A DNA stretch of 64,000 nucleotides from Escherichia coli (GTDB taxonomy: Bacteria > Pseudomonadota > Gammaproteobacteria > Enterobacterales > Enterobacteriaceae), in NCBI RefSeq assembly GCF_017348835.2, contig NZ_CP071375.1. The stretch is one strand, 5' to 3'. The position numbers and the translations under genes were made by a program. Every line of letters begins with the position of its first letter. Positions within the stretch are counted from its first letter, which is position 1. This document shows, one piece after another, positions 10,121 to 10,158 of the stretch. The notes beneath the pieces are model-generated. The model worked only from the letters and a program-made list of their open reading frames with translations. It did no database searches and had not been told where the DNA came from.

Positions 10121-10158
10121 CACTGTATAAAAATCCTATACTGTACGTATCGACAGTT
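10121..10158 (+). promoter_or_regulatory. Two adjacent candidate LexA (SOS) boxes upstream of ydjM
   Basis: CACTGTATAAAAATCCTATA (10121..10140) and TACTGTACGTATCGACAGTT (10139..10158); the second is a near-perfect CTGT-N8-ACAG box. ydjM is a known LexA-regulated gene. Confidence 0.6.

Follow-up and report, generated by a model that had tools for sequence, protein, structure and literature searches.

Are the LexA-like 20-mers that precede ydjM and cho in this Escherichia coli chromosome genuine SOS operators, and does the pair upstream of ydjM consist of two LexA sites or of one site beside a look-alike? The DNA analysed here, called the window throughout, is a stretch of 64,000 nucleotides. 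A sequence-only reading of it had placed two LexA boxes in front of ydjM and one in front of cho, and had regarded both genes as members of the SOS regulon. The three 20-mers were located exactly at the positions given in that reading, and the features concerned are as follows.

10121..10140, + strand: ydjM LexA box 1, the weak operator lying farther from the gene, CACTGTATAAAAATCCTATA, CTG-N10-CTA; left arm as in the consensus, right arm defective
10139..10158, + strand: ydjM LexA box 2, the stronger of the two operators and the promoter-proximal one, TACTGTACGTATCGACAGTT, CTG-N10-CAG
10173..10763, + strand: ydjM coding sequence, 196 aa, putative metal-dependent hydrolase of the inner membrane (RefSeq, PF04307 at 7e-36, NF008651 at 375 bits)
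24554..24573, + strand: cho LexA box, TACTGGATAGATAACCAGCA, CTG-N10-CAG
24587..25474, + strand: coding sequence of cho (ydjQ), 295 aa, a UvrC-like endonuclease of nucleotide excision repair (RefSeq, NF007833 equivalog at 579 bits)

The identities of the two genes are borne out by the RefSeq annotation, in which ydjM begins with the ATG at 10173 and cho with the GTG at 24587, and by protein family models whose thresholds are passed in every case. YdjM scores 123.8 bits against PF04307 (cut-off 29) and exceeds the cut-off of 216 bits for the NCBIfam equivalog NF008651, Cho exceeds the cut-off of 367 bits for the equivalog NF007833, and homologs of Cho carry the name excinuclease Cho. The assignment of both genes to the SOS regulon likewise agrees with published work. 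Each is listed with a known SOS box (PMC6590174 Table 1), and RNA-seq data report 8.6-fold lexA-dependence for ydjM and 5.1-fold for cho, with heterology indices (HI, lower values being nearer consensus) of 9.0 and 7.5, respectively (PMC11228462 Table 1). In the same data set AZT induces ydjM 2.5-fold, and cho, at 0.77-fold, is not induced. Ciprofloxacin induces both genes, with log2 fold changes that reach 2.6 (ydjM) and 1.6 (cho) (PMC11002266 Table 1). Neither gene is mentioned in the LexA binding-kinetics study of Culyba 2018 (PMC5999292). The observation of LexA sites is confirmed, and their interpretation as SOS elements is supported, except for the statement that box 1 carries the CAG pattern. 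Both operators are already known, having been in the literature since 2000, and the case is an ordinary one whose significance beyond annotation is small.

Every position of the window (about 64,000 positions) was scored with a LexA matrix built from 17 operators (PMC3009722 Table 4), from which cho had been removed and among which ydjM was absent, and the matrix was made symmetric. Chance expectations were derived from the exact score distribution and agree with first-order Markov simulations. The best four matches are given here.

cho box: 22.3 bits, rank 1, 0.0014 expected by chance per 64 kb, symmetric HI 6.2
ydjM box 2: 15.2 bits, rank 2, 0.12 expected by chance per 64 kb, symmetric HI 10.7
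ydjM box 1: 12.1 bits, rank 3, 0.55 expected by chance per 64 kb, symmetric HI 12.3
Fourth-best match, at 26932-26951: 10.4 bits, 1.2 expected by chance per 64 kb

Thus, out of 64,000 positions, a simple matrix scan cleanly puts the sites of two textbook SOS promoters in the first three places. Validated operators of the training set score between 4.3 and 28.0 bits when left out one at a time (median 20.9). The sequence-only reading had named matrix scoring as a way to check its sites, and the outcome is favorable, with the cho box and box 2 falling inside the validated range and box 1 at its weak end. The score of the cho box is highly significant and that of box 2 reaches significance once its position is considered, while the score of box 1, taken alone, is at chance level and not significant. 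The probability that a site as good as box 1 falls within 30 nucleotides on either side of box 2 is, however, only roughly 5e-4 (about 60 positions at 8.6e-6 each). Our HI values are close to the published ones. For E. coli these are 7.5 (cho) and 9.0 (ydjM); the two ydjM boxes of Salmonella have 9.12 and 12.85.

All matches beyond the fourth score less than 8 bits. The fourth itself (GACTGGTGATAAATAAAGCA), which has AAG as its right arm and lies between spy and astE, about 235 nucleotides upstream of spy, was rejected as a LexA site given the 1.2 matches of this quality expected per window.

The bare pattern CTG-N10-CAG proved to be unspecific, since the window holds 28 matches to it when 12.4 are expected; those within the top 25 matrix matches, other than the sites described here, score at most 7.7 bits. 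All three 20-mers had been said to fit this pattern. An exact search finds it in box 2 (10141-10156) and in the cho box (24556-24571), but box 1 ends in CTA instead. Box 1 therefore lacks the 16-bp core CTG-N10-CAG of the gammaproteobacterial LexA operator, whose 20-bp consensus is TACTG(TA)5CAGTA, and by its letters it could at most be called a degenerate operator or a half-site.

The arrangement of the sites also required minor revision. Box 2 ends 14 nucleotides and box 1 ends 32 nucleotides before the ydjM ATG, and the cho box ends 13 nucleotides before the cho GTG, where distances of about 15 and 14 nucleotides had been given for ydjM and cho. The two ydjM boxes, which had been called adjacent, are indeed neighbors, but they overlap by the dinucleotide TA at 10139-10140, which is common to both. 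With unequal strengths (15.2 and 12.1 bits) and an overlap at their terminal positions, they form a strong-plus-weak tandem.

Conservation was assessed in 80 enterobacterial ydjM loci, one genome per species, whose proteins share 85-99% identity and whose genera include Escherichia, Citrobacter, Salmonella, Enterobacter, Leclercia, Kosakonia, Raoultella, Atlantibacter and Franconibacter. Both the CTG and the CAG of box 2 are kept in all 80 promoters, and variation is restricted to spacer positions 6, 8-10, 13 and 14. Invariant arms around a variable spacer are the conservation that would be expected of an operator, and the conservation of box 2 follows the information content of the LexA motif across these loci (rho 0.45). 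The two boxes are offset by 18 bp in almost every one of the 80 orthologs, and in most they lie 14 and 32 nucleotides from the ATG, so that the sampled Enterobacteriaceae share the tandem layout.

The cho operator was compared among loci from eight other genera, obtained through homologous proteins. A LexA box is present in all eight, scoring 15-22 bits and lying 12-13 nucleotides before a conserved GTG. Throughout the nine aligned genera the CTG, the CAG, the GGAG of the Shine-Dalgarno sequence and an upstream CTGYTAYACTG are invariant, and the spacer is variable.

Box 1 presents a different picture. Its left-arm CTG is kept in 79 of the 80 orthologs and the whole arm, ACTGTA, in 78, with the arm being degenerate in two species (L014 and L026) that both retain box 2. 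The right arm reads CCTATA in all 80 and CAG in none. This CCTATA stretch coincides with a TATACT hexamer and with the first bases of box 2, and the weak box looks as if it were locked in its one-armed form by these neighbors. Across the 80 loci its conservation does not track LexA motif information (Spearman rho 0.08), and its central AAA and right half are conserved beyond what the LexA motif requires. Promoter function must therefore account for part of the conservation of box 1.

A strict sigma-70 promoter scan gave no match at either the ydjM or the cho locus. A relaxed hexamer scan yielded the -10 candidates below, which are listed with a translation signal at cho.

10126..10131, + strand: alternative candidate -10 of ydjM, TATAAA, inside box 1
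10137..10142, + strand: candidate -10 of ydjM, TATACT, at the junction of box 1 and box 2
24549..24557, + strand: candidate extended -10 of cho, TGtTATACT, with a predicted start at about 24564
24577..24580, + strand: Shine-Dalgarno sequence of cho, GGAG, 6 nucleotides before the GTG

The TATACT hexamer of ydjM could be partnered by a weak -35 (TTCCGT, 10114-10119) across a 17-nucleotide spacer, with a predicted start at about 10149. The surrounding sequence, CCTATACTG, is invariant in all 80 orthologs. For TATAAA, a possible -35 (CCGTCA, 10104-10109) lies 16 nucleotides away, and the start is predicted at about 10138. The third position of this hexamer varies (T in 70 and C in 10), the other five being kept in 78-80 of the 80 loci, and the conservation of the segment appears to be shaped like that of a -10 hexamer. 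All three LexA sites lie no more than 52 nucleotides from the start codons, and the -10 candidates that rank best in the relaxed scan overlap them, although the strict scan matched no promoter there. At cho the first four bases of the box are the last four of the TATACT hexamer, and the box covers the predicted start. The two promoters have the same TATACTG overlap in common (10137-10143 and 24552-24558), in which the last four bases of the hexamer are the first four of the box; this shared overlap accounts for the almost equal distances from box to start codon, 14 nucleotides at ydjM and 13 at cho.

Strong conservation in front of ydjM is not confined to the boxes. Positions 10089-10172 form an 85-nucleotide block that is almost invariant across the 80 enterobacterial species of many genera, and the upstream part of this block is a feature of its own.

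10089..10120, + strand: conserved block upstream of box 1, GAGAAAGAGTTACACCGTCACCACTTCCGTG

The mean column conservation of 10089-10120 is 1.71 bits in the 80 species, compared with 0.92 immediately upstream and 1.18 at third codon positions. Sequences just 5′ of 10089 are unrelated between genera, whereas the roughly 30 nucleotides before box 1 are nearly invariant. A search of 10089-10120 for an open reading frame, a repeat or a hairpin found none that is convincing. To our knowledge the segment does not match the consensus of CRP, Fur, CpxR, ArcA, the MarA/SoxS box, sigma-E, sigma-32 or sigma-54. Presumably it holds the -35 element and upstream RNA polymerase contacts, or the site of another factor. 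The sequence CCTATACTG resembles CTATACT, which we take to be a -10 of the sigma-S type. It is conceivable, though doubtful, that the ydjM control region integrates the SOS response with another signal, either through a second regulator or through two overlapping promoters, possibly including one of the sigma-S type that uses CTATACT.

Very probably, ydjM and cho are preceded here by their classical E. coli SOS operators, at which LexA would cover the core promoters and keep RNA polymerase out until it cleaves itself, the ydjM pair most likely being bound cooperatively. This interpretation draws on sequences, scores, positions and conservation that we computed, and on reports of lexA-dependence and binding from the literature; from these we infer the -10 elements, the transcription starts, the occlusion and the cooperativity. 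In undamaged cells, LexA dimers would occupy the 20-bp near-palindromes that overlap the core promoters of both genes. At cho, the single strong box would begin inside the extended -10 (TGtTATACTGG...) and span the predicted start. At ydjM, the medium-strength box 2 would begin inside the TATACT hexamer and cover the predicted start, with the weak box 1 covering the spacer and the alternative -10. Because the operators overlap -10 hexamers, LexA bound to them would be expected, from the sequence, to exclude RNA polymerase until its self-cleavage is stimulated by RecA. On DNA damage, RecA filaments would bring about this cleavage, the operators would become empty and ydjM and cho would be transcribed. 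Cooperative binding to the strong-plus-weak pair of ydjM would most likely make repression tighter than box 2 could achieve alone.

Several other explanations were weighed against this one. The matches could in principle be chance AT-rich palindromes without a regulatory role, as the abundance of the bare pattern in the window might suggest. This is extremely improbable given that the three sites hold the top three matrix ranks, are all just upstream of start codons and show operator-like conservation across genera, and that the published expression of ydjM and cho is LexA-dependent (PMC11228462); for box 2 and the cho box, rank, position, conservation and LexA-dependence together refute it. 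A more searching alternative accepts these two as real operators and denies that box 1 functions as a LexA site, its likeness to one being a by-product of promoter sequence (the TATAAA -10 or an A-rich spacer) and its conservation reflecting contacts with RNA polymerase. The missing CAG in all 80 orthologs, a score of which 0.55 instances are expected per window, the rho of 0.08, the -10-like conservation of the TAYAAA segment and the two species that keep box 2 without the left arm of box 1 are all in keeping with this idea. However, we consider it decidedly unlikely. The ACTGTA kept in 78 of 80 species includes a C and a G that a -10 hexamer does not need, the offset between the boxes is fixed at 18 bp, and the second ydjM LexA site returned by an independent motif search (PMC4576408 Table 2) is box 1. 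Moreover, tandem LexA sites at ydjM are described as experimentally reported in PMC4951493, which cites Fernandez de Henestrosa 2000.

Expression data also bear on box 1. The lexA-dependence of ydjM is unusually high for its HI, as genes of similar HI reach only 1.7-fold (ftsK), 1.7-fold (dinG), 1.9-fold (rmuC) and 1.7-fold (uvrD) (PMC11228462); this correlation fits a contribution from box 1. Box 1 as a LexA site is supported by its 2-nucleotide overlap with box 2, by the conservation of its left arm and by the published tandem reports. A further possibility is that ydjM has two tandem promoters 11 bp apart, with TATAAA (10126) and TATACT (10137) as their -10 elements and each blocked by its own LexA box, in place of one promoter under a cooperative pair. 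Both hexamers match at five of six positions and are almost invariant across the 80 species, and each is found inside one of the boxes or at its edge, but both candidate -35 elements are poor (two to three of six positions). We regard such an arrangement as rather unlikely; it is compatible with the classical operator reading and does not exclude it.

The classical operator reading is in line with the closest known systems. The tandem LexA boxes of K-12 ydjM (b1728), attributed by PMC6590174 and PMC4951493 to Fernandez de Henestrosa et al. 2000, do not differ in the window strain, which is identical to K-12 from -100 to +6 and has the same 20-mers, box 2 among them, at the same distances (14 and 32 nucleotides) from the same gene. 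Salmonella has the same layout, in which a pair of boxes precedes ydjM by 14 and 32 bp and ydjQ has a single box (PMC8072944 Table 1), and the HI of 12.85 belongs to the second box, at 32 bp, the other being 9.12 (PMC8072944).

Pairs of LexA sites are also described elsewhere. Colicin genes have a strong and a weak site that overlap at their ends and bind LexA cooperatively, according to PMC4951493, citing 2008 work. Judged from this description of the colicin layout, ydjM likewise has a stronger and a weaker box with a terminal overlap, of 2 nucleotides in its case. Unlike colicin genes, ydjM is chromosomal and is a core gene of the Enterobacteriaceae, and its cooperativity is presumed. Like ydjM, lexA has two LexA sites in one promoter (Brent 1982, as cited by PMC4951493). 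The lexA boxes, however, are described there as separate full sites 1-10 bp apart, whereas those of ydjM overlap and one of them is without a CAG arm.

The ydjM promoter varies to some extent within E. coli. Positions 9800-10900 of the window are matched in 5,423 of 5,426 complete E. coli genomes, with 100% identity to strain PE164 (NZ_CP114128.1), and about a third of the complete genomes differ somewhere from an 87-nucleotide ydjM promoter query. Two genomes of this third were compared base by base (strains 536 and EC9682), and both have a T to C polymorphism at 10134, which is spacer position 14 of box 1 and takes its score down to 9.8 bits from 12.1. A complete genome of E. coli NIPH17_0036 (locus L093) has a 7-bp deletion, AAATCCT, aligned to 10131-10137, that fuses the left arm of box 1 to box 2 with loss of the 18-bp register.

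The cho promoter of the window strain departs from that of K-12. The K-12 cho (ydjQ, b1741) box, CACTGGATAGATAACCAGCA, is the published site (PMC3009722 Table 4), and the gene and the 13-nucleotide distance to the GTG are shared with the window. The boxes are identical at 19 of 20 bases, the exception being position 1 (24554), which is C in K-12 and T here. With this change from C to T the matrix score goes up from 19.6 to 22.3 bits, and the overlapping hexamer TACACT becomes TATACT, so that the variant improves operator and -10 hexamer alike. The same T is found in Salmonella, Citrobacter and Intestinirhabdus. A second change relative to K-12, T to C at 24575, lies 2 nucleotides past the box. 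The variant is rare, as PE164 is the sole one of the 5,426 complete E. coli genomes to have the exact 81-nucleotide cho promoter; the window from 26952 to 64000 has zero mismatches to PE164 NZ_CP114128.1.

In two cho records the annotated start is an upstream ATG overlapping the LexA box, which may be the reason for the "distance 0" listed for ydjQ in PMC8072944. Between nadE and cho, about 75 nucleotides upstream of the cho LexA box, there is an Rfam match to the sRNA ES036 (CssrF) at 24437-24479 on the + strand (42.9 bits, gathering score 37.6), in surroundings that look REP-like.

The two SOS loci had been placed about 14 kb apart, and their distance in the window is indeed 14.4 kb. This figure includes a strain-specific IS3-family insertion, however, and in K-12, which lacks the element, the start-to-start distance is 13.3 kb. 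The extra distance is mostly due to this element, which occupies 13163-14376 (+ strand) between ydjO and cedA and has a programmed-frameshift transposase and an ALIL pseudoknot at 13444-13560. LexA controls an estimated 35 or so loci in 4.6 Mb. From this estimate, a 64-kb window would contain at least two such loci about 8% of the time, and the co-occurrence of ydjM and cho in one window is unremarkable for a regulon of such size. Elsewhere in the window, thrS and yniD of this strain, which is of pig origin, flank an intact gene for the type III effector EspL1 (espL1), located at about 3054-4952 on the + strand.
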